Assembly: GCA_963849505.1 (NCBI GenBank)
Contig: CAWKHY010000003.1
Coordinates: 6,096-70,095, forward strand
Reading direction: 5' to 3'
DNA length: 64,000 bases
Source of the DNA: an uncultured Acidobacteriaceae bacterium
GTDB taxonomy: Bacteria > Acidobacteriota > Terriglobia > Terriglobales > Acidobacteriaceae
The position numbers were made by a program, and so were the translations under genes. Under the pieces are notes generated by a model. The model was not told the origin of the DNA. It did not search any database and worked only from the letters and a program-made list of their open reading frames with translations. This document shows positions 34,117 to 43,024 of this stretch, in pieces; position 1 is the stretch's first letter, and each line of letters begins with the position of its first letter.

Positions 34117-34144
34117 TTGCGGGAATTCGGCGGTCCAGTAAAAT
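34117..34144 (+). promoter_or_regulatory. Candidate sigma-70-type promoter (TTGCGG-N16-TAAAAT) ahead of the Rieske gene
   Basis: Found by pattern match only. It would place the transcription start near 34151, which favours the Rieske start at 34168 or 34189. Confidence 0.25.
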
Positions 34145-34167
34145 CATCGCAGCCCGTCCAAACGCAA

Positions 34168-34581
34168 ATGACATTACCCCAGCCAACCATGCGGCGTCTT
34201 TTTTTGAAGACAGCGCTAGCGCTGCTTTTCGCGCCGGTACTGTGGTTAATGAACAATCTGGCAAAGCGTGCCGGTTCGCTGCCCGAAAATTCTGATAACA
34301 CACTAACCGTACCCTTTGCTGCAGGCAGCGGGATTCATTTCTATAACAAGGTCATAGCCATCACCAGCGAGGAAGGAGTGGCTGTCTTCTCATCAGCCTG
34401 CCCGCATCTGGGCTGCCGTATCAACCGGGCGGAAGGCGGCGAACTGGTTTGCCCTTGCCACGGATCGAAATTCAACTCGCGCGGAGAGGTTTTGCGCGGG
34501 CCAGCCAGGCGCAATCTGCAACCGCTGAAGTTTGAACTTGACCGAGCTGGCGCAGTTTTGCGCATCACCCTTAGCGAGTGA
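34168..34581 (+). CDS. Rieske [2Fe-2S] protein (bc-complex type)
   Basis: Box I is CPHLGC and box II is CPCHGS, both with the disulfide cysteines. The N-terminal RRLFLKTALALL is a Tat-like signal/anchor. Its stop overlaps the next GTG start (GTGA at 34578-34581). Confidence 0.85.
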   Translation: MTLPQPTMRRLFLKTALALLFAPVLWLMNNLAKRAGSLPENSDNTLTVPFAAGSGIHFYNKVIAITSEEGVAVFSSACPHLGCRINRAEGGELVCPCHGSKFNSRGEVLRGPARRNLQPLKFELDRAGAVLRITLSE

Positions 34582-37313
34582 CTGGTGGTGGCCAGGTGAA
34601 CGATAAGCTTTGGCGCCGGATCCCGCCGTTGGGAATGCTCGCCTTGGCGGCCTTCGTCATCTGCGCGGTCACCGGTATCATGCTCGTACCCGCCTACAAG
34701 CCAAGTACACCGTTCGACTCGCTTGCTCTCCTGCTGCTGAAAAACCCCACCGGCGTTTTCGTCCGAAGCCTGCACTATTGGTCCGCACAGGCATTCTTTG
34801 CTTTCACGCTCGCACACATCGTGGATCATTTGCTTCGGAGCAGCGAGGTAAAGGTGCGCTTCGGCATCTGGCTCCGGCTCGGTCTTACTGTTCCGGTGAT
34901 TGTCGCCAGCATGCTCTCTGGCTTTCTTCTGCGCGGGGACGGAGCGGCTGTCCAGGCTTTGCCGATTCTGCGAACTCTCCTTGGCTTTGTTCCTTTGATC
35001 GGGGCAGCGCTCCCACGCTTGTTGACGGGTGCAGGCTCCGATCTCTCCACCATCTATCTTCATCACGCCTGTACAGCGACGCTCGTGATATGGCTGGTCA
35101 CGGTCGAGCACTCGCGGCGCATTGTGCCGGGAGCACGAGAGGTCTGGTGGACACTTCCGGTGGTGTTGTTGCCATCGTTGTTCCTCGTCCCGGGACTGGA
35201 ATGGCGTTCCTCGGAGGTTGAATTAGGGCCGTGGTACCTGGTCGGCTTGCAGGAGTTGCTGCGATGGTTGCCCCAACCCCGGGTAGCCGTCTGGCTCACG
35301 TTGGCCATTCTGCTTTCGCTGATCTTGTTGCCTAAATTGTTCCAGCCGCTGCGCTCCCGGCTCAAATGGACGATGGCTCTCGCGGTTCTTGCTTATACGG
35401 CTCTTACGACTGTGGGATTTGGCTTTCACGATAGCGGGCGGAGCTTGAGAATGCCCCTCAAGCTCTCAACTGCTCAGCTGAATTTTCTTTCATTTAGAGC
35501 CTACTATCCGCCCGATACATCACTCATAAATCAGGTCGTGCCGTCGATCGCAGGTCAGCGGGAGGGATGCCTCGCCTGTCATCAAAAAGTCTCCGGATTT
35601 TCGGCCGCGCACGATCCGCAATTGATCGGATGCGCTGCGTGCCACCTGGGGAACCCGCTCACTCTCAACAAAGCTCTCGCCCATTCGGGCATGACGCTCA
35701 CTCCGGGAAACTTATCCTTTGTCAATCAGACTTGCGGTACTTCAAACTGTCATGGCGGGGTGGCAGACCGGGTGCGTGGGTCGCTGATGAACACGATGAG
35801 TGGCGTAGTGGCGGTGGACAAATTCGTTTTCCGCGAGAGCATCGATCTGGATTCCCGGTTCGACGTTGCCGCCTTGAAGCATTCGCCAGCAGACACGCAT
35901 CTGCGCAATCTTTGCGCCTCTTGCCATTTGGGACAGAATAAGCCGCATCCTGGACCCATCGACGAATCGAGTCGGGGCGGCGGTTGCTCCGCATGTCATC
36001 TTCGATACGATCCCGCCGCAATAGCGGACCTGCAGCGCCCAGCAGGAGCGTCAGCGCTGCTGCACCACCCGGATATCTCAGTGGACGTGCCGAAACAAGC
36101 ATGCTTCGGATGCCACAGCCGATCCGGTCGCATCGCTACCAATTATGAGGGCTGGCATGAAACGCTGTTGGACGAAGCCTCGGTGAAGACCATGCCCGGC
36201 TTACCCAGTCAGTTTCGCCAACTGGCCGATGGGCGAATTTTTACAAAGCGTCCCGCTGACGTTCACTTTGAAAAAGGGATGACTTGCGTTGACTGCCACG
36301 TGGCTACCGAAGTCATGGGTGACGGCACGGCACACTCGCACGAGGGAAATGCGATCAAAATTGCCTGCATTGACTGTCACGCGACCGGGGCGACGGTTGC
36401 AGTGGAATTTGCACGACTGGATGCCGAGACGCAGGAAATCATTGCTTTGCGAAAGCTGAACGAGCCGGGAAGGGAATTCGTGGTCTCACAATCCGGCTCC
36501 GTCGCGTACCCGAATGTTTTCCTGGATGCCGACGGCCGTCCAGTGCTGGCAGTGAAAGGATCGGCAAAACTCCTGAAGCCCCGGCCCGCCGCATCCGTTT
36601 GCGCTCGCGCCGGTTCAGTTCACCAGCGACTGGACTGCGGCGCGTGCCATAGCGCGTGGGCGCCGCAGTGCATCAATTGCCATACCTCTTTCGACCCTGC
36701 CGCGCAGGGCTGGGATCATCTGGACGAGAAATTCGTCAACGGCGTTTGGCAGGAGCAGGCAACGGATTATCTGGGAGATGCTCCCGCACTCGGGGTCGAC
36801 CGCGTCAGAGCGCCAAATGGTAAAACTGCGGAACACATCACTACTTTCGTTCCGGGAATGATTCTGAGTCTCGAACTACCGAATGGAAGGAATCAATTTC
36901 ACCGGCTATTTGCGCCGACATCTCCACACACTACCGTCACCAAGGCCAGAGACTGCGGTTCCTGCCACGCGAATCCAGTGGCTTTGGGCTATGGCCGCGG
37001 GACTCTGACGTATGTGGTCACAGGCAATACGAGGGAGTGGCGATTCAAACCGGCATTTTCCGCTAGCCGCCAGGATGGACTGCCGTCGGATGCCTGGATT
37101 GGATTCCTGCAGGAGCCGGCGAACCAGTCGACGACGCGCAAGGACGCCCGTCCTTTCACATTGCACGAGCAGCAAAGGATTCTACTGGTGGGGGCTTGCC
37201 TCGAGTGCCACAACGAAAAGGATCGTCGCCTCGCTCGTGTATTCGAAGATTTCAAAAACTACCGCGCCGCCCTGAGCCGAAAATGCCGAATTCCGGTCTG
37301 GGCCGTCGATTAA
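34578..37313 (+). CDS. Cytochrome b6 + subunit-IV-like membrane domain (7 TM) fused to a 12-haem c-type cytochrome domain
   Basis: Haem-b ligand pairs are H66/H80 (13 residues between) and H163/H178 (14 between, b6-type). Also present are VTGIML in helix A, RSLHYWSA, and GPWY at 217-220 in place of PEWY. There are seven hydrophobic helices. From aa 331 on come 11 CxxCH motifs (CLACH, CAACH, CASCH, CSACH, CFGCH, CVDCH, CIDCH, CGACH, CINCH, CGSCH, CLECH) plus one CGTSNCH (Cx4CH). Confidence 0.85.
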   Translation: MTGGGQVNDKLWRRIPPLGMLALAAFVICAVTGIMLVPAYKPSTPFDSLALLLLKNPTGVFVRSLHYWSAQAFFAFTLAHIVDHLLRSSEVKVRFGIWLRLGLTVPVIVASMLSGFLLRGDGAAVQALPILRTLLGFVPLIGAALPRLLTGAGSDLSTIYLHHACTATLVIWLVTVEHSRRIVPGAREVWWTLPVVLLPSLFLVPGLEWRSSEVELGPWYLVGLQELLRWLPQPRVAVWLTLAILLSLILLPKLFQPLRSRLKWTMALAVLAYTALTTVGFGFHDSGRSLRMPLKLSTAQLNFLSFRAYYPPDTSLINQVVPSIAGQREGCLACHQKVSGFSAAHDPQLIGCAACHLGNPLTLNKALAHSGMTLTPGNLSFVNQTCGTSNCHGGVADRVRGSLMNTMSGVVAVDKFVFRESIDLDSRFDVAALKHSPADTHLRNLCASCHLGQNKPHPGPIDESSRGGGCSACHLRYDPAAIADLQRPAGASALLHHPDISVDVPKQACFGCHSRSGRIATNYEGWHETLLDEASVKTMPGLPSQFRQLADGRIFTKRPADVHFEKGMTCVDCHVATEVMGDGTAHSHEGNAIKIACIDCHATGATVAVEFARLDAETQEIIALRKLNEPGREFVVSQSGSVAYPNVFLDADGRPVLAVKGSAKLLKPRPAASVCARAGSVHQRLDCGACHSAWAPQCINCHTSFDPAAQGWDHLDEKFVNGVWQEQATDYLGDAPALGVDRVRAPNGKTAEHITTFVPGMILSLELPNGRNQFHRLFAPTSPHTTVTKARDCGSCHANPVALGYGRGTLTYVVTGNTREWRFKPAFSASRQDGLPSDAWIGFLQEPANQSTTRKDARPFTLHEQQRILLVGACLECHNEKDRRLARVFEDFKNYRAALSRKCRIPVWAVD

Positions 37314-37428
37314 AGGGATGCGCGGGTTTCCTCCTGAGTAAATCCCGAAGATTCCTCAACAAAGGTGATGCAGGTCACTGTGTGCAGTTTACACCTACGT
37401 GTATCTCTGTCAGTGGAGAATGGCTGAC

Positions 37429-39617
37429 ATGCACAACCTGTCTCGCCGGCGTTTCTTGAAGATTACCGCGGGCACCCTGGCTGCGGTGGGCGCGCTCGAC
37501 GGCGCTGGCCGGGTGTTGGCGGGAACCGGCAAGTCGGCGCAAAGCGGCCTGCGGGCTGTTCCAACCTTTTGCGACATCTGTTTCTGGAAATGTGGCGCAA
37601 TCGCTACTGTTCGTGATGGCCAGCTCTGGAAGATTGAAGGTAATCCGCTCGATCCGCTCTCCCGTGGACGTCTCTGTCCTCGCGGCACTGGAGGCGTTGC
37701 TGCGCATTCTGATCCGGATCGTTTGCGGACGCCGCTCATCCGCGTGAGTGAGCGCGGCGAGGAAAAATGGAAGGCTGTGTCTTGGGACGAAGCGCTGACC
37801 TTCACTGCGGAGAAAATGCAGAAGATCAAGGCAGACTATGGCCCTGAATCCTTTGCCGCGTTTATTCACGGGCTCGGCGGTACGTTCTTGAAACACACTC
37901 TCAAGGCGTATGGCGCGATCAACATTGCTGCACCTTCATTTGCGCAATGCCGCGGCCCGCGCGACGTTGGTTTCCGGCTTACTTATGGTGACGACGTGGG
38001 CTCGCCGGAGCGGACGGACATTGAGAACGCGAAGTGTCTGGTGCTGATTGGCGCGCATCTCGGCGAGAACATGCACAACACCCAGGTGCAGGAATTCGCA
38101 ACCGCAGTCGAACGCGGCGCCAGCATTATCGTGGCGGATCCACGCTTCTCCGTTGCGGCCAGCAAGGCGAAATTCTATCTGCCGGTCAAGCCCGGCACTG
38201 ACCTCGCGCTGTTGCTCGCCTGGATGAACGTAATTGTTAGCGAGAACCTTTACGACAAGGATTACGTCATCAAGTACGGCTTCGGCTTCGAGCAGTTTGC
38301 CGCCGAAATTCAACCGTTCACGCCGGAATGGGCGTACCCGGAAACTGGTATTGATCCCGACATTATCCGCGCCACCGCACGCGAAATGGCGCGTTACCGT
38401 CCGGCCACCCTGATTCATCCAGGCCGGCATTCGAACTGGTATGGCGACGACACCCAGCGAAGCCGTGCCATTGCTCTGCTCAATGGGCTCATGGGTAGTT
38501 GGGGTCGTAAGGGCGGCTTCTACGTACCATCAAGCATGGAAGTGCCAGCCTATCCGCACCTGCCTTATCCCAAGCCAGTCAGGCCCAAGGTTGACAATCC
38601 AGATAATAGGTTTCCTTTCGCGAACGAAGGCATCAGCACAGGCATTCGCGACGCTACGCTGACGGGCAAGCCATATCCAGTAAAAGGCTGGATGGTCTAT
38701 GCCACCAACCTGATGAACGCCCTGCCGAACCAGGCGGAAACCATTCGAGCCATCCAACAGCTTGATCTACTCGTAGTTGTCGATGTGATTCCCAGCGAGA
38801 TCGCCGGCTGGGCAGATGTCGTCCTACCCGAGTCTGTCTATCTCGAACGCTATGACGAGCTGAATCCAGAGCTGTTCAAGAAGCCGTTCATCGCGTTACG
38901 CCAACCGGTGGTCGAATCTCCGGCCGACCAGAAGCCGAATTGGTGGATCGCCAGGAAGCTGGCAGATAAACTCGGCCTCGGAGCCTACTATCCGTGGAAC
39001 GACATCGAGGAATACCTCGCGACTCGGCTCAGGGCCGGAGGCTATAGTTTTGACGATTTGAAACGCGATGGCATCCTGCCTGGCAAACAGCCGCCGATTT
39101 ATTTTGATGACGGCGCGCCCGCCGAATTCGATACACCGTCAAAAAAAATCGAATTCTATTCCACGCAGTTGCAGCAGGCCGGGTTTGATCCGGTGCCAAA
39201 ATACACGCGGCCTGAGCCAGGACCGCAGGGATCCTACCGGCTCCTATTTGGTCGCGCACCCATGCACTCTTTCAGCAGGACCCAAACCAATCGTCTTCTC
39301 TCCGATTTGATGAGCGAAAATTCCGTGTGGATCAACGCAAGGGAGGCCAGCCGCATCGGTTTGAAAAGCGGCGACTACGTTCGGCTGCGCAATCAGGACG
39401 GCATGGTGAGCAACCGCGTCCTCGTTAAAGCCACGGAGCGCATCCGGCCTGACTGCGTCTATATGGTGCACGGCTTCGGCCACACCTCCAAGGAGCTTCG
39501 CCACGCTTTCGGCAAAGGCGCCAGCGACGCGGGTTGATAACGCGCTACAAGACTGATCCGCTGATGGGCGGCACCGGCATGAATGTGAACTTCGTAACCG
39601 TTGAGATGGAGGCCTGA
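37429..39617 (+). CDS. Tat-exported molybdopterin (bis-PGD) oxidoreductase catalytic subunit, PsrA/PhsA-like; apparent -1 frameshift at about 39531
   Basis: Tat motif SRRRFLKITAG. FS0 motif CDICFWKC-x27-C. Candidate Mo-ligand region SFAQCRGPR. The annotated ORF stops at 39537 (GKGASDAG*). The family-typical C-terminus LITRYKTDPLMGGTGMNVNFVTVEMEA* continues in the -1 frame to 39617. One extra G in the GGG run at 39531-39533 would restore the frame. Confidence 0.85.
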
Positions 39618-39619
39618 CG

Positions 39620-40159
39620 ATGTCACGCTTTGTCATGGTGATTGATACCCGCAAATGCGTGGGCTGCCATGATTGCGTCGTAGCCTGCAAAACCGAGAAC
39701 GGCGTGCCGGAAGGCTACTGCCGCGATTGGATCAGCGAAGAGTTGCATGGTGCCTTTCCTACCGTGCAGCTTGAGATTCGCTCTGAGCGGTGCAATCATT
39801 GCGCAAATCCGCCCTGCGTGGATTGCTGCCCGACAGGCGCCAGCCACGTGCATGAGCGGGGCGGCGTGGTGCTCGTCACGCACGACAAATGTATCGGCTG
39901 CAAGGCCTGCCTGGCTGCGTGCCCCTATGACGCGCGCTTTATCCATCCGGATGGCTACGCGGATAAATGCACGTTTTGTATCCACCGCGTCGAACAAGGT
40001 TTCGACCCTGCCTGCGTTTCTGTCTGTCCGACACACTGTATGCACTTTGGCGACATCGATGATCCGGAAGCTGAAGTCAGCAGCCTGCTGAATTCGCGCC
40101 CTCATCACGCGCTGTTACCTGAAGTGGGAACCAAACCCTGCATCTTCTATTTGACTTGA
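39620..40159 (+). CDS. 4x[4Fe-4S] ferredoxin-type electron-transfer subunit (PsrB/NrfC/DmsB-like)
   Basis: Cys clusters CVGCHDCVVAC, CNHCANPPCVDCCP, CIGCKACLAACP and CTFC...CVSVCP. Confidence 0.9.
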   Translation: MSRFVMVIDTRKCVGCHDCVVACKTENGVPEGYCRDWISEELHGAFPTVQLEIRSERCNHCANPPCVDCCPTGASHVHERGGVVLVTHDKCIGCKACLAACPYDARFIHPDGYADKCTFCIHRVEQGFDPACVSVCPTHCMHFGDIDDPEAEVSSLLNSRPHHALLPEVGTKPCIFYLT

Positions 40160-40170
40160 GATGAATTCGG

Positions 40171-41220
40171 ATGAACATGATTGAACTGACTGTCTCGCGC
40201 CACAATCCGCTCGTTGATCCGTACCTCCATGTTTGGGAGTGGCAGATCCCCGTGTACCTATTCCTTGGCGGATTGGTGGCCGGACTCATGATCATCGCGG
40301 GCATCCGACTCCTCGCCTTCCGCCCGCAAAAACGGGAGGCGCTGGTCTGCTGCACGATCGGGCCGTTGATCGGTCTGGCACTTTTGAGCCTTGGCATGTT
40401 CGTGCTGTTTCTCGACCTCTCCCATAAACTCTATGTGTGGCGGCTGTATACCACCTTCGAAATCACCTCGCCGATGTCGTGGGGATCGTGGATCCTCCTG
40501 CTCGTATATCCCGCTCTGCTGGCCAACGCGCTGGCGCATCTGCCCGAAGCAATTCCTGCGCTGGCCAAACGCGTTCCGGTGTTATTTACATGGAGTGATT
40601 TTATTCTTGCGCGGGCCAGGTTGGTGTTGGCCATCGGGATTGCCAATATCGCCGTCGGCGTTGCGCTGGGCATCTACACGGGAATTTTGCTGGGCACACT
40701 CAGTGCTCGTCCTCTTTGGAATAGCGCTCTCCTCGGCCCGCTGTTTCTTGTTTCGGGACTTTCAACTGCGGCAGCCTTGTTGCACGGCATTCTGTTGCTC
40801 AACACACCCGACGAGGAACGCCCCGCCTTTGCCGACTTTCTGCTTTCGGCGCTTACCAGGCTGGCACAGGCGCGGCCACTTGATAAAAGCGTCGAACCCG
40901 TGATGGCCCGTGCTGACAACAGCTTCTTGACAATCGAACTGGCACTACTCGGCCTGTTCTTCATCGGCCAACTGAGTTCTTCCGCGGTTCACCAACAGGC
41001 TGCCACCCTTCTGTTGACCGGTTCCTACGCGGCAGTCTTTTGGGTTTTCGTTGTTGGAATGGGTATTGTTCTGCCGCTCTTGTTGCAATTTCTCGAACTT
41101 CACAACCGCATTCGTCATACCCTGGCACCAGCGGTGCTGGTAGTCTTTGGCGGAATCGCGCTCCGATTCATCCTCGTATACGCCGGCCAGGCAAGTAACT
41201 GGCTGCAGGCTTTGAACTAG
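40171..41220 (+). CDS. NrfD/PsrC-family integral membrane quinol-interacting subunit
   Basis: 349 aa with 8-10 TM helices. The N-terminal W-x-W-x-IP-x-YLFLGG motif (VWEWQIPVYLFLGG) is typical of the NrfD family. Confidence 0.85.
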   Translation: MNMIELTVSRHNPLVDPYLHVWEWQIPVYLFLGGLVAGLMIIAGIRLLAFRPQKREALVCCTIGPLIGLALLSLGMFVLFLDLSHKLYVWRLYTTFEITSPMSWGSWILLLVYPALLANALAHLPEAIPALAKRVPVLFTWSDFILARARLVLAIGIANIAVGVALGIYTGILLGTLSARPLWNSALLGPLFLVSGLSTAAALLHGILLLNTPDEERPAFADFLLSALTRLAQARPLDKSVEPVMARADNSFLTIELALLGLFFIGQLSSSAVHQQAATLLLTGSYAAVFWVFVVGMGIVLPLLLQFLELHNRIRHTLAPAVLVVFGGIALRFILVYAGQASNWLQALN

Positions 41221-41235
41221 AGAAATGGATATTCC

Positions 41236-41766
41236 ATGAGTAATGTTGAGCGATCTTCAAAACCATACTGGAATCCCTACCTGGCCGGATTCGGTCTCGG
41301 CCTGGTGCTGCTGGCATCGTTTGTGATCATGGGTCGCGGCCTCGGTGCGTCGGGAGCAATGACAACGGCAGTCGCAACCGCCGTGCACCATCTTGCCCCG
41401 ACTCATGCCGAGAACAATGCCTTCTATTCCGAATATCTGGGCGACGGCTCACGCAGCCCGCTCAAGGACTGGTTGATCTTCGAGGTGTTGGGCGTCTTCG
41501 TTGGCGGCTTTCTCTCTGGAGCGCTGGCCAATCGGTTGAGCTTCAAAGTTGAGAAAGGGCCACACATTACGACTCTGTGGCGCCTGATCTTCGCTTTTGT
41601 AGGTGGCGCTCTGATGGGCATCGGGGCAAAGATCGCGCTTGGCTGCACCAGTGGTCAAGCCCTAACCGGTGGCGCGTTGCTCAACGTTGGCAGTTGGGTC
41701 TTCATGATGTGCGTGTTCGGCGGCGCCTACGCTCTGGCCTATTTCTTTAGAAAGGAGTGGATCTGA
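41236..41766 (+). CDS. YeeE/YedE family sulfur-compound transport protein
   Basis: 176 aa membrane protein with the conserved GCTSGQ motif. Confidence 0.8.
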   Translation: MSNVERSSKPYWNPYLAGFGLGLVLLASFVIMGRGLGASGAMTTAVATAVHHLAPTHAENNAFYSEYLGDGSRSPLKDWLIFEVLGVFVGGFLSGALANRLSFKVEKGPHITTLWRLIFAFVGGALMGIGAKIALGCTSGQALTGGALLNVGSWVFMMCVFGGAYALAYFFRKEWI

Positions 41767-41767
41767 G

Positions 41768-43024
41768 ATGAACGCCCCTTTCTACAAATTTGGACTCTTC
41801 GGTGACGAAACCAGTCTCATCATCGCTTTTGCAATCGGTATTGGCTTCGGGTTTTTCCTTGAGCGTGCCGGCTTTGGCAGCGCGCGAAAACTCGCGGCGC
41901 AGTTCTATCTAACCGACTTGAGCGTTCTGAAAGTAATGTTCACGGCCATCATCACTGCGATGACGGGGCTTTATATGCTGTCGCGCCTGGGCTTGGTGGA
42001 CTTGTCACTCGTCTATCTTGTGCCGACATTTCTGGTGCCGCAGATTGTGGGCGGGCTCCTGCTCGGTGTCGGTTTCGTCATCGGTGGTTATTGTCCCGGC
42101 ACTTCGTGTGTTTCCGCCGCGACAGGCCGGATTGACGGCATGGTTTACTTGGCCGGAATCGTCGCTGGGCTATTAGGCTTTGCGGAGGTTTATCCCCATG
42201 TGCAAGGCCTCGTTCACGCCACGCCGATGGGACAGATCACGTTGCCTAAATTCTTCAATATTCCGTACGGCTTGCTCGTCTTCGCTGTCGTGCTCATGGC
42301 TCTGGGTGCATTTATGGCGGCAGAATGGGCTGAGAAAATGGTCGGAGGCAAAGAGCCAGACCCCAAGGGGTCGCTCATTGGCCAGCCGTGGCGGCTCACA
42401 CCCGTTCGCGTCCTCGCGTTGGGTCTGGCTGTTGTCGGGTTTGTTGCCGTCTTCGCAGGCGACCCTTATCGCGGTAGCCGTGTGACAATCGACACCAGGG
42501 ATCTGGCGATCCGAGCCGGTAAGGGCGCGGATTCAATCCAAGCGGGGCAGCTCGCGGACTGGATCATCCAAGGCCGCAACGATTTCAGGCTAGTCGACTT
42601 GCGGGACGCTACGCAATTTGCCATCTACCACATTCCCACAGCCCAAAATGTGCCGCTCGCATCTCTAGCACCCGATTTTGCGGCGCACAACGAGAAGATC
42701 ATTCTTTGCTCTGATGATGGGACGCAAGCTGCCAAAGCCTGGTTCCTACTTGAGGCGCAAGGTTTCAAATCCGTTTATCTGCTGGACGGCGGACTGCACA
42801 CATGGCAGGACGCGATTTTGTTTCCAAAGAAATCCGCCGACACCGATGCAGCCTCATTTGAAAGACGGGTGCAGATCGCGAAGTACTTCGGCGGCACACC
42901 ATCGGTGGACACCACTGCCGCCCCAGCATCCGCATTTCTGACGATGCCAAAACTGGTGCCACCGGCAAGTGCCGATACAGCCGTTTCAAAGTCGCAGCCC
43001 AAGAAGAAAAAGGAAGGTTGCTGA
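41768..43024 (+). CDS. YeeE/YedE family membrane domain fused to a C-terminal rhodanese domain
   Basis: The N-terminal half has GGYCPGTS. The C-terminal half (RLVDLRDATQFAIYHIPTAQNVP...KIILCSDDGTQAAKAWFLLEAQGFKSVYLLDGGLHTW) is rhodanese-like with a Cys active-site loop. Confidence 0.8.
   Translation: MNAPFYKFGLFGDETSLIIAFAIGIGFGFFLERAGFGSARKLAAQFYLTDLSVLKVMFTAIITAMTGLYMLSRLGLVDLSLVYLVPTFLVPQIVGGLLLGVGFVIGGYCPGTSCVSAATGRIDGMVYLAGIVAGLLGFAEVYPHVQGLVHATPMGQITLPKFFNIPYGLLVFAVVLMALGAFMAAEWAEKMVGGKEPDPKGSLIGQPWRLTPVRVLALGLAVVGFVAVFAGDPYRGSRVTIDTRDLAIRAGKGADSIQAGQLADWIIQGRNDFRLVDLRDATQFAIYHIPTAQNVPLASLAPDFAAHNEKIILCSDDGTQAAKAWFLLEAQGFKSVYLLDGGLHTWQDAILFPKKSADTDAASFERRVQIAKYFGGTPSVDTTAAPASAFLTMPKLVPPASADTAVSKSQPKKKKEGC

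Follow-up and report, generated by a model that had tools for sequence, protein, structure and literature searches.

The sequence examined in this work is a 64-kb stretch of DNA (hereafter referred to as the window) from an uncultured Acidobacteriaceae bacterium (contig CAWKHY010000003.1 of assembly GCA_963849505.1). It contains a gene whose product combines, within a single polypeptide, a cytochrome b6-like part, a subunit IV-like part and a 12-haem cytochrome c module, the last of which we will refer to as c12. The gene for a Rieske iron-sulfur protein lies directly upstream, and the GTG start codon of the fusion gene overlaps the TGA stop codon of this Rieske open reading frame (ORF) as GTGA. 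Downstream, on the same strand and with gaps of 1–85 nucleotides (nt), follow psrA, psrB, nrfD/psrC and the genes for two halves of a YeeE/YedE-type transporter, the second of which also carries a rhodanese domain. The conserved linkage of the fusion gene with these Psr, YeeE and rhodanese genes is the most informative feature of this locus and the main new result of our work, and it was absent from an earlier account of the window that was based upon its letters and ORFs alone (referred to below as the sequence-only reading). The features of the locus are listed in Table 1, and all residue numbers are those of the 911-amino acid (aa) fusion protein.

The sequence-only reading had proposed that the cytochrome b and cytochrome c parts form one polypeptide, and this proposal was borne out by different lines of evidence. 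Neither a hidden frameshift nor a stop codon was found in the gene, the homologous ORF was continuous in all 80 related genomic loci that were fetched (median length 920 aa by ORF calling), and the junction between the b and c parts was without a gap in an alignment of 44 orthologous sequences. The motifs that had been read from the sequence were likewise located by script: CxxCH at residues 331, 352, 446, 470, 509, 570, 597, 687, 698, 793, and 874 (n = 11), a single Cx4CH (CGTSNCH) at residue 386, both pairs of b-haem histidines with the spacing seen in b6-type proteins (H66-x13-H80 and H163-x14-H178), and the GPWY variant of the Qo motif at residues 217–220 (nt 35226–35237). Of the 26 cysteines in the C-terminal 611 aa, 24 are located within haem motifs. 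The 11 CxxCH motifs compare with 0.05 expected from the composition of the domain and with a maximum of three in 20,000 shuffled sequences, and the fusion gene is the sole ORF in the window with two or more such motifs. The computed mass of the apoprotein is 99.2 kDa, and it increases to about 108 kDa with 14 haems. Two further ORFs overlap the cytochrome b part (34341–35111 on the minus strand, 256 aa; 34610–35221 on the plus strand, 203 aa), and because the frame of the fusion is strongly conserved they can most likely be regarded as shadow ORFs, the gene being GC-rich (56%). A scan for promoters and terminators yielded matches at the chance level only.

The fusion protein belongs to a large and conserved family, in contrast to the view in the sequence-only reading that larger fusions have been reported only sporadically. 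A search covering 5.8 billion proteins gave 1584 matches, including more than 100 clusters (at 90% identity) of proteins that are 895–943 aa long, cover 96–100% of the query and show 42–72% identity to it. Each of the 44 aligned orthologues contains exactly 11 CxxCH motifs and one Cx4CH motif. In a genome scan, where every species was represented by one genome, at least 573 species genomes were found to encode full-length orthologues with 40–72% identity. The identity to the window protein is 64–71% in the Acidobacteriaceae and Terracidiphilus, and other orthologues are present in the Ignavibacteriota, including the cultured species Melioribacter roseus, Ignavibacterium album and Rosettibacter primus, and also in the Bacteroidales, Calditrichaceae, Opitutaceae, and Gemmatimonadales. 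Hundreds of species from soil, sediment and the subsurface thus carry a complex that is annotated as 'hypothetical' or 'DUF4405', and despite an earlier mention of the clade the family is essentially undescribed and experimentally untouched. The genome papers for I. album and M. roseus report the presence of alternative complex III and the absence of a cytochrome b-Rieske/bc1 complex (PMC3362086, PMC3534657), and the latter is also stated in a multi-omics study (PMC5492636), but orthologues of both the Rieske protein and the fusion are present in metagenome-assembled genomes (MAGs) assigned to I. album (L061) and M. roseus (L040). Due to this oversight, the respiratory reconstructions for the Acidobacteriota, Ignavibacteriota, and Bacteroidota miss a quinol oxidase.

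The genes that accompany the fusion in the window were also found near it in other genomes. In tblastn searches of the 80 loci, homologs of PsrA were detected in 53, of PsrB in 50, of NrfD in 42 and of each YeeE half in 43. Where at least 6 kb of flanking sequence was available on both sides, a PsrA-like gene was located within 8 kb of the fusion in 40 of 46 loci (87%), lying downstream on the same strand in 27 cases, upstream and divergent in nine, and downstream on the opposite strand in four. The identities of c12 and PsrA to their counterparts in the window co-vary (r = 0.79). To this set of genes a census of the protein families around the fusion adds only genes for molybdenum-cofactor biosynthesis and molybdate uptake, regulators and, in some lineages, a FadL/TodX channel, and no second cytochrome c and no ExtN-, ExtI-, or MccSep-like protein was conserved near the fusion in the 80 loci or present in the window. 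In the reciprocal test, which started from PsrA, the gene for a 12-haem cytochrome was found inside a psr-yeeE operon in two of three unbiased contexts, including the complete genome of Opitutus terrae. A comparison of the PsrA-like protein of the window (37399–39537) with proteins P0272–P0391 revealed 73–89% identity across the Acidobacteriota, Verrucomicrobiota, Chlorobiaceae, Ignavibacteriales, and Bacteroidota, vs. 40–72% for the fusion, and this higher conservation of PsrA suggests that the psr-yeeE block has spread laterally.

The manner in which c12 is anchored to the membrane differs among these loci, and the forms observed include a full cytochrome b, a cytochrome b lacking the bH ligands that occurs without a Rieske protein, an anchor of three transmembrane (TM) helices and an anchor of a single TM helix. 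In O. terrae and in a second complete genome, one array contains genes for a FadL-like protein, PsrA, PsrB, NrfD, YeeE, YeeE-rhodanese, a 12-haem cytochrome of 709 or 737 aa and a MOSC protein, and no Rieske gene was found in the array of either genome. Over residues 329–906 of the window protein, the cytochrome of O. terrae shows 45% identity. Both the 709- and the 737-aa form have a three-TM anchor without similarity to subunit IV, and that of O. terrae is also unrelated to cytochrome b. A version with one TM helix is present beside the same psr-yeeE genes in an Opitutaceae MAG (L071). In another group of proteins (P0080, P0084, P0087, P0091, and P0092), one or both of the bH histidines are lost (H80 to Y/W; H178 to Q/R), and the proteins retain PWY, the ligands of bL and the complete set of 12 c-haem motifs. 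The one member of this subclade whose surroundings were checked (P0087; L083 10001–12721) has no adjoining Rieske gene and yet is next to psrABC-yeeE; genes for CoADR-rhodanese, MBL-fold, TehB-like, and ArsR-type proteins are also present in its locus. Loss of bH and of the Rieske protein suggests a decay of the Q-cycle machinery with retention of the haem domain. Two apparent subunit IV-c12 'intermediates' (P0138 and P0145) were disregarded, as they come from contigs of about 2 kb and may be truncated gene calls.

Table 1. Features of the locus, with positions in the window
Feature	Position	Strand	Details
Rieske [2Fe-2S] protein, ExtO/PetC-like	34117..34581	+	Pfam Rieske 1.2e-10; NCBIfam b6f/bc1 Rieske matches
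Fusion gene: cytochrome b6-like + subunit IV-like + 12-haem cytochrome c	34578..37313	+	911 aa, no internal stop
Cytochrome b6-like four-helix part (helices A–D, residues 18–179)	34629..35114	+	predicted bL ligands H66/H163, bH ligands H80/H178
Subunit IV-like three-helix part (helices E–G, residues 186–282)	35133..35423	+	GPWY at 217–220
Periplasmic linker, helix G to first haem motif (residues 283–330)	35424..35567	+	outer side by loop alternation
12-haem cytochrome c domain, ExtM-like (residues 331–911)	35568..37310	+	11 CxxCH + 1 Cx4CH; beta-rich subdomain ~703–825
PsrA/PhsA-type catalytic subunit with molybdenum-bis(pyranopterin guanine dinucleotide) (Mo-bisPGD), periplasmic	37399..39537	+	PDB 2VPW (Thermus thermophilus Psr) 3.2e-205, full length
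PsrB-type four-cluster ferredoxin	39620..40159	+	Pfam Fer4_11 7.6e-25; NCBIfam NrfC, DsrO, ArrB, TtrB
PsrC/NrfD-type membrane quinone-interacting subunit	40171..41220	+	Pfam NrfD 1.2e-37; ~8–9 hydrophobic segments
First half of split YeeE/YedE-type sulfur/selenium transporter	41236..41766	+	Pfam Sulf_transp 3.4e-22; NCBIfam YedE/FdhT, TsuA
Second YeeE/YedE half + rhodanese + Lys-rich tail ending EGC	41768..43024	+	Pfam Sulf_transp + Rhodanese

The membrane part of the fusion shows similarity to cytochrome b at the levels of both sequence and predicted structure. The Pfam model Cytochrome_B (PF00033) matches residues 18–160 with a score of 39.5 bits (gathering score 27.2), the best matches by sequence in the PDB are cytochromes b6 (1.8e-7), and there is a weak match to a subunit IV (1vf5_B). 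In an AlphaFold2 model of the full fusion, which was built upon 44 homologues, the predicted local distance difference test score (pLDDT) is 83–95 over residues 10–280 and below 50 for residues 286–300 of the linker. The model contains seven TM helices (A 18–39, B 57–86, C 95–118, D 157–179, E 186–202, F 234–249, and G 256–282) as well as an ef helix at residues 219–230, which begins at PWY. Foldseek superimposes it upon the full-length cytochrome b of many bc1 complexes with a probability of 1.0 over 320–400 columns, a span indicating that the domain covers both the b6 and subunit IV parts. Short loops rich in Lys and Arg alternate with the cd and ef loops, so that the N-terminus is predicted to be inside and the segment past helix G outside, and the haem domain is therefore placed on the periplasmic side, as is required for the attachment of c-type haems. 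The seven TM helices and periplasmic C-terminus of the sequence-only reading are thus supported by both the modelled helices and the loop charges, and a cytoplasmic location of the haem domain was ruled out by the same two features.

Among the 44 orthologues H66, H163, P218, and W219 are invariant, Y220 is present in 43, H80 and H178 in 40 each, and G217 in 36; all four of the b-haem ligands are retained in the window protein and in 39 of the 44. In fused representatives scored for the Qo motif, GPWY was present in 18 and GPWF in seven. The cysteine that binds haem cn in b6-type proteins (CxGG) is absent: helix A has a TG motif in its place, the aligned residue 17 is Pro, and Pro or Thr is found at this position across the family. 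The protein thus has the His spacing of the b6 type but is not predicted to be a three-haem cytochrome of the b6f type. Identification as b6f sensu stricto was rejected upon this basis, and the NCBIfam model for cytochrome b6 gave a score of 40 against its cutoff of 325.

The c12 module is related to ExtM of Geobacter. It matches the NCBIfam model for ExtM (NF040943) with an E-value of 3.7e-71, residues 324–895 being collinear with positions 15–593 of the 599 in the profile. However, at 240 bits the match falls well short of the equivalog cutoff (800), as does that of the N-terminus to ExtP (53 vs. 290), and hence we regard the protein as a homologue of ExtM and ExtP rather than as their orthologue or equivalog. 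A HMMER search with the haem domain detected 257 representatives at E ≤ 1e-30; of the best 150 of these, 33 carry a fused cytochrome b and 56 stand alone as proteins of 560–700 aa, and nearly all have 12 motifs. All 36 haem-motif residues are invariant in the 44 fused proteins and in 53 stand-alone relatives that show 27–46% identity. Candidates for the distal ligands are H345, H369, H441, H497, H563, H588, H682, H784, M372, M404, M580, and M761. Of these, H369, M404, H563, M580, H682, and H784 are invariant in the 53 stand-alone relatives, H345 and H497 are nearly so, and within the fused family there is also conservation of H441, H588, M372, and M761. These residues would probably suffice for 12 six-coordinate haems, approximately eight with bis-His and four with His/Met ligation. 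The position of M761 (nt 36858–36860), which is invariant in the fused family, is occupied by Cys in 13 of 54 members of the ExtM family, where a His/Cys-ligated, sulfur-reactive haem is a possibility.

A separate AlphaFold2 model of the haem domain, made without haems, has a moderate pLDDT of 69.8 and includes a beta-rich subdomain. A comparison of this model with the PDB gave no match at E ≤ 0.001, and the matches observed were chance similarities to beta-barrels. The search of the PDB with the sequence profile showed only a local similarity to the haem packing of NrfA (2e-4), cytochromes c7 appearing at E ≥ 0.1, and the Pfam c7/c3 matches are limited to residues 439–516 and 560–613. Based upon the partial Pfam matches, these E-values and the lack of a fold match, a dodecahaem polymer of c7 units (GSU1996 type) was rejected. 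On present evidence the domain is also not of the MtrA/OmcS-like or NrfA/HAO kinds, and its fold, as far as can be judged from the model, is structurally uncharacterised.

The Rieske protein, which probably begins at Met18 or Met25 of the ORF, contains the cluster boxes CPHLGC and CPCHGSKF, both of the disulfide cysteines and a twin-arginine translocation (Tat) motif, TMRRLFLK. In the window its gene is translationally coupled to that of the fusion through the overlapping codons, and a Rieske gene adjoins the fusion in 73 of the 80 related loci. The signature following box II could be scored in 60 loci and was S-F in 43 and S-Y in 17, with no case of G-F. According to a published rule, S-F and S-Y predict a Rieske protein of 'Mid+' to high potential (PMC4122944).

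By its subunits, iron-sulfur motif and Tat signal, the enzyme encoded downstream is predicted to be a PsrABC/PhsABC-type molybdoenzyme. The PsrA-like protein, which likely starts at Met11 of its ORF, has the Tat motif SRRRFLK and the Pfam domains Molybdopterin, Molydop_binding, and Fe4S4, and it matches the NCBIfam model for PhsA at 4.2e-152 with a score of 508 vs. the equivalog cutoff of 694. In the YeeE-rhodanese family all 16 members examined end in [KR]EGC, and this C-terminal Cys may be the real carrier of sulfur or selenium. The active-site Cys of the rhodanese is not conserved, as 10 members of the family contain Cys and seven contain Tyr at this position.

Several regulators and a channel were also noted. 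A MerR-type protein with a Cys-rich tail (CW..C...C....CW...C...C..C; L040 10913–11353 in the M. roseus MAG) belongs to a family present in 18 loci. In the Ignavibacteriota its gene separates the fusion from psrA, in a Chlorobiaceae MAG (L085 9553–10017) it is found upstream of psrA, and the protein may regulate the locus in response to redox state or metalloids. Elsewhere, a sigma-54-type activator is found in acidobacterial loci and an ArsR/HTH_5 protein in the Opitutaceae. The FadL/TodX outer-membrane channel, which is absent from the window, is encoded directly upstream of psrA in the Opitutaceae (L084 8578–9984 and L086 8554–9996), also at L083 20410–21855, and near the cluster in 11 acidobacterial loci. 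A hydrophobic substrate, for example elemental sulfur (S0), could enter through it, in a parallel to the porin-like ExtI of Geobacter.

Of the explanations that can be considered for this locus, we favour with moderate confidence the one in which a Rieske/cytochrome b quinol oxidase with a 12-haem exit domain serves the respiration of chalcogen or pnictogen compounds alongside PsrABC. The oxidation of (mena)quinol would take place in a Qo pocket to which both the GPWY ef-loop and the Tat-exported Rieske protein contribute. One electron would pass from the [2Fe-2S] cluster to the tethered 12-haem domain in the periplasm, and the other would travel across the membrane from bL to bH and on to the Qi site, as in a Q cycle. 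The electron wiring would accordingly run through the Rieske cluster, and not directly from the Qo site to the haems as the sequence-only reading had envisaged. The 12-haem domain would act as an electron-transfer hub, probably with the mixture of bis-His and His/Met haems described above, and its physiological partner would be the co-encoded periplasmic molybdoenzyme, assisted by the YeeE/YedE-rhodanese sulfur-trafficking proteins. The locus would then encode a module for respiration with an oxidised compound of a chalcogen or pnictogen, the candidates being polysulfide or S0, tetrathionate or thiosulfate, selenite, or possibly arsenate. The present data show the integrity of the gene, the residues that bind cofactors, the topology, the homology of the individual parts, the size of the family and the linkage of the genes, and from there we infer the operation of a Q cycle, the transfer from Rieske protein to c12, the exchange between c12 and Psr, its direction, and the substrate.

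This explanation is supported by the cofactor sites and fold, by their conservation, by the Rieske partner, by the homology to the Geobacter system and the polysulfide reductase encoded beside extM, by the linkage to psr, and by expression data for M. roseus. In the locus of this species the fusion and Rieske genes are immediately upstream of the MerR gene, which is followed by psrA, and this order matches Mros1773–1776 (PMC3534657). The psr/phsA gene Mros1774 was strongly induced during anaerobic respiration with arsenate and was almost silent under aerobic, microaerobic, and fermentative conditions (PMC5492636). The arsenate-induced operon of M. roseus is orthologous to the psr genes of the window.

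A number of observations weigh against the favoured explanation. PsrABC possesses its own quinol-interacting subunit, NrfD, and a second quinol oxidase is not obviously needed. No psrA was found within 8 kb of the fusion in six of the 46 well-flanked loci, and a Chlorobiaceae MAG has psr-yeeE-rhodanese genes without a 12-haem cytochrome. The presence of c12 in the psr operons of Opitutaceae that lack Rieske and cytochrome b, together with the bH-less subclade, indicates that the association of c12 with Psr is independent of the Qo machinery. Lastly, the standard potential of polysulfide/sulfide is about −260 mV, and with the predicted mid-to-high potential of the Rieske protein a flow of electrons from Rieske via c12 to polysulfide would be steeply uphill, which calls for either an acceptor of higher potential or a different electron flow. 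A high-potential Rieske signature together with sulfur acceptors of low potential poses a genuine puzzle in bioenergetic terms. Three ways out of it are possible: an acceptor of higher potential (tetrathionate, selenite, or arsenate), a Psr enzyme that works in the oxidative direction, or a c12 that taps bL. The first of these is ranked highest because the closest relatives of the enzyme are reductases, because the induction in M. roseus is anaerobic and dependent upon an acceptor, and because c12 is kept in psr operons that lack cytochrome b.

The oxidative direction forms the basis of the foremost alternative, which we consider possible but rather unlikely. Here the Psr-like enzyme would be a dehydrogenase that oxidises sulfide, polysulfide or another reduced compound and reduces menaquinone via NrfD, and the Rieske/cytochrome b-c12 complex would re-oxidise the menaquinol by a Q cycle and deliver the electrons to a sink of high potential, e.g., a haem-copper oxidase, nitrite, or metal oxides. 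Such a chain fits the predicted potential class of the Rieske protein and the probable His/Met haems, and it accounts for the joint encoding of one complex that reduces quinone and another that oxidises quinol. Some of the loci carry a persulfide-dioxygenase-like MBL protein, CoADR-rhodanese and ArsR/BigR regulators, which are typical of sulfide/persulfide oxidation and detoxification, and many of the hosts (Acidobacteriaceae, Ignavibacteria) are aerobes or facultative aerobes. However, this explanation offers no reason for c12 to remain in the psr operon after Rieske and cytochrome b have been lost (O. terrae, L071, L086). The psrA transcripts of M. roseus were negligible under aerobic and microaerobic conditions and increased with an electron acceptor (PMC5492636), and the most closely related enzymes that have been characterised, Psr of T. 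thermophilus and MccSep of Geobacter (10.1101/2025.11.18.688581), are reductases.

The variable anchoring of c12 raises a bolder possibility, which at present appears to us distinctly unlikely, namely that c12 is the conserved unit and the dedicated partner of the Psr-YeeE/YedE-rhodanese proteins in at least five phyla, that Rieske/cytochrome b is a swappable and at times discarded front end for quinol oxidation, and that in the fused form bL feeds low-potential electrons to the haem chain, either in addition to those from the Rieske protein or in their place. If this were true, menaquinol could drive the reduction of polysulfide or S0, and the purpose of the Geobacter Cbc6 complex would be explained. 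A related proposal, that of a non-canonical Qo site in which c12 takes the low-potential electron from bL, or both electrons, and gives rise to a low-potential reductant in the periplasm (e.g., for polysulfide) with no Q cycle, would resolve the thermodynamic mismatch. As the bH-less, Rieske-less subclade keeps bL, PWY, and the 12 c-haems, any bL electron in these proteins must leave by another route, and for anammox bacteria it has been proposed that Rieske/cytochrome b complexes are put to unusual bifurcating use (PMC12954380). We nevertheless hold this proposal to be improbable, since the window protein and most orthologues retain the four b-haem ligands, the great majority of loci have a Rieske partner, which is the signature of a normal Q-cycle enzyme, and the bH-less forms may be mere degenerate anchors.

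That the 12-haem domain is itself a catalyst, i.e., a multihaem enzyme converting sulfur or selenium compounds and not only a wire, seems to us very improbable. The Cys found at position 761 in part of the ExtM family can be cited in its favour, as His/Cys-ligated haems mark sulfur-converting cytochromes (10.1101/2025.11.18.688581), and so can the conservation of the beta-rich subdomain that contains no haem, the weak local profile matches to NrfA, and the constant presence of rhodanese and YeeE as neighbours. Against it, the conserved His and Met residues suffice for a sixth ligand on all 12 haems, the window protein has Met and not Cys at 761, and in the PDB searches neither structure nor sequence showed a significant match to any multihaem enzyme with a catalytic function. 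Motifs of the Cx4CH type occur also in plain electron-transfer cytochromes c3, which likewise counts against a catalytic role. Finally, the chance that the fusion is an artefact, produced by a frameshift or mis-assembly that merged separate cytochrome b and cytochrome c genes or consisting of a non-functional cytoplasmic CxxCH domain, is negligible, given the same full-length ORF in 80 independent loci, its coverage in more than 100 protein clusters and in the genome scan, the gapless junction in the alignment, and the seven-helix, positive-inside topology.

The relationship of the fusion to known systems remains to be considered. A clade of cytochrome b with the GPWY motif was described by Kao and Hunte (2014) from the delta-Proteobacteria, Ignavibacteria, and Nitrospinae, and the I. 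album protein YP_005846642 was noted in that work as being fused to a 'triheme cytochrome c7 domain' (PMC4122944). Our analysis of the I. album orthologue (L061) revealed GPWY, H-x13-H, H-x14-H, and 11 + 1 haem motifs, and 'triheme' is therefore an under-count. The published clade and the window protein share the same Qo motif and the same predicted Mid+/high-potential Rieske partner, but the gene context of the clade and its spread in the Acidobacteriota, Bacteroidota, and Verrucomicrobiota were not described (PMC4122944). Judged by its motif and by the full-length similarity and architecture that it shares with I. album, the window fusion probably belongs to this clade.

In the QcrABC complex of Firmicutes, subunit IV is fused to a cytochrome c. 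In Kuenenia, Kuste3096–3097 combine cytochrome b with a dihaem cytochrome c (PMC12954380). As in the window protein, the C-terminus of helix G in these systems lies on the membrane's p-side and carries a tethered c-type acceptor for the Rieske cluster, but they contain one or two class I haems, whereas the window protein has 12 haems in another, structurally unsolved fold, has b6 and subunit IV fused, and lacks the Cys for haem cn. The anammox complexes Kustd1480–85 and Kuste4569–74, for which non-standard energetics have been proposed, resemble it in having b6-like and subunit IV-like proteins with hexa- and octahaem cytochromes c in place of cytochrome f (PMC12954380). Their multihaem partners, however, are separate subunits unrelated to ExtM, and they possess haem cn as well as NAD(P) oxidoreductase subunits, neither of which is present in the complex described here. 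Geobacter CbcL also joins a quinol-oxidising dihaem b membrane domain and a nine-haem periplasmic domain in one polypeptide (PMC13591261). It has neither a Rieske partner nor a Q cycle, and the similarity is one of analogy and not of homology. The membrane part of CbcL is HydC/FdnI-like and is not a Rieske-type cytochrome b. For the downstream enzyme the closest parallel is PsrABC of T. thermophilus (2VPW), to which it is similar in the full-length alignment of PsrA and in its PsrB and NrfD partners. It differs in being encoded among c12, YeeE/YedE, and rhodanese genes and in scoring below the PhsA equivalog cutoff.

Another of the closest systems is found in Geobacter, where the genes for ExtN (10 haems), ExtO (Rieske), the 23-kDa cytochrome b ExtP and the 17-kDa membrane protein ExtQ lie beside that for the 12-haem, 68-kDa ExtM (GSU2935) (PMC5877670, PMC2825233). 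These 12- and 10-haem partners, together with the hexa- and octahaem partners in anammox bacteria (PMC12954380), show that the statement in the sequence-only reading that known Rieske/cytochrome b complexes use a mono- or dihaem partner is too strong. ExtM-N-O-P-Q-S is the same as Cbc6/CbcMNOPQR (GSU2935–2930), whose role is stated to be unknown (PMC13591261). With the window it shares a Rieske protein, a four-helix cytochrome b of b6 type, a small membrane protein and a 12-haem cytochrome, and both clusters also include a rhodanese-like protein and an enzyme of the polysulfide-reductase type (PMC5877670; 10.1101/2025.11.18.688581). It differs in having separate genes, in the additional presence of the 10-haem ExtN, ExtS, and the porin ExtI, and in having a haem/selenocysteine polysulfide reductase in place of the molybdenum-containing PsrABC. 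The latter enzyme, MccSep (GSU2937–2936), is encoded directly upstream of extM; it is a periplasmic five-haem selenoprotein that reduces polysulfide and, more weakly, selenite, and it is essential for S0 respiration in G. sulfurreducens (10.1101/2025.11.18.688581).

As indicated by these sequence comparisons, the fusion is the fused counterpart of Geobacter ExtO-ExtP-ExtQ-ExtM (Cbc6) and not categorically new, and the Rieske/cytochrome b/c12 module is clustered in different lineages with two non-homologous enzymes of the polysulfide-reductase type. The value of the present results lies therefore less in the fusion itself than in the cross-phylum link to the Psr-YeeE-rhodanese genes, which in conjunction with the Geobacter link to a non-homologous polysulfide reductase yields a specific hypothesis on the role of the 12-haem Rieske/cytochrome b complexes, which has been open since 2010 (PMC2825233, PMC13591261). 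This prediction is testable in M. roseus and O. terrae, both of which are in culture, and the two-gene fused form offers a minimal natural system for structural work on the passage of electrons from a Rieske cluster into a multihaem chain.

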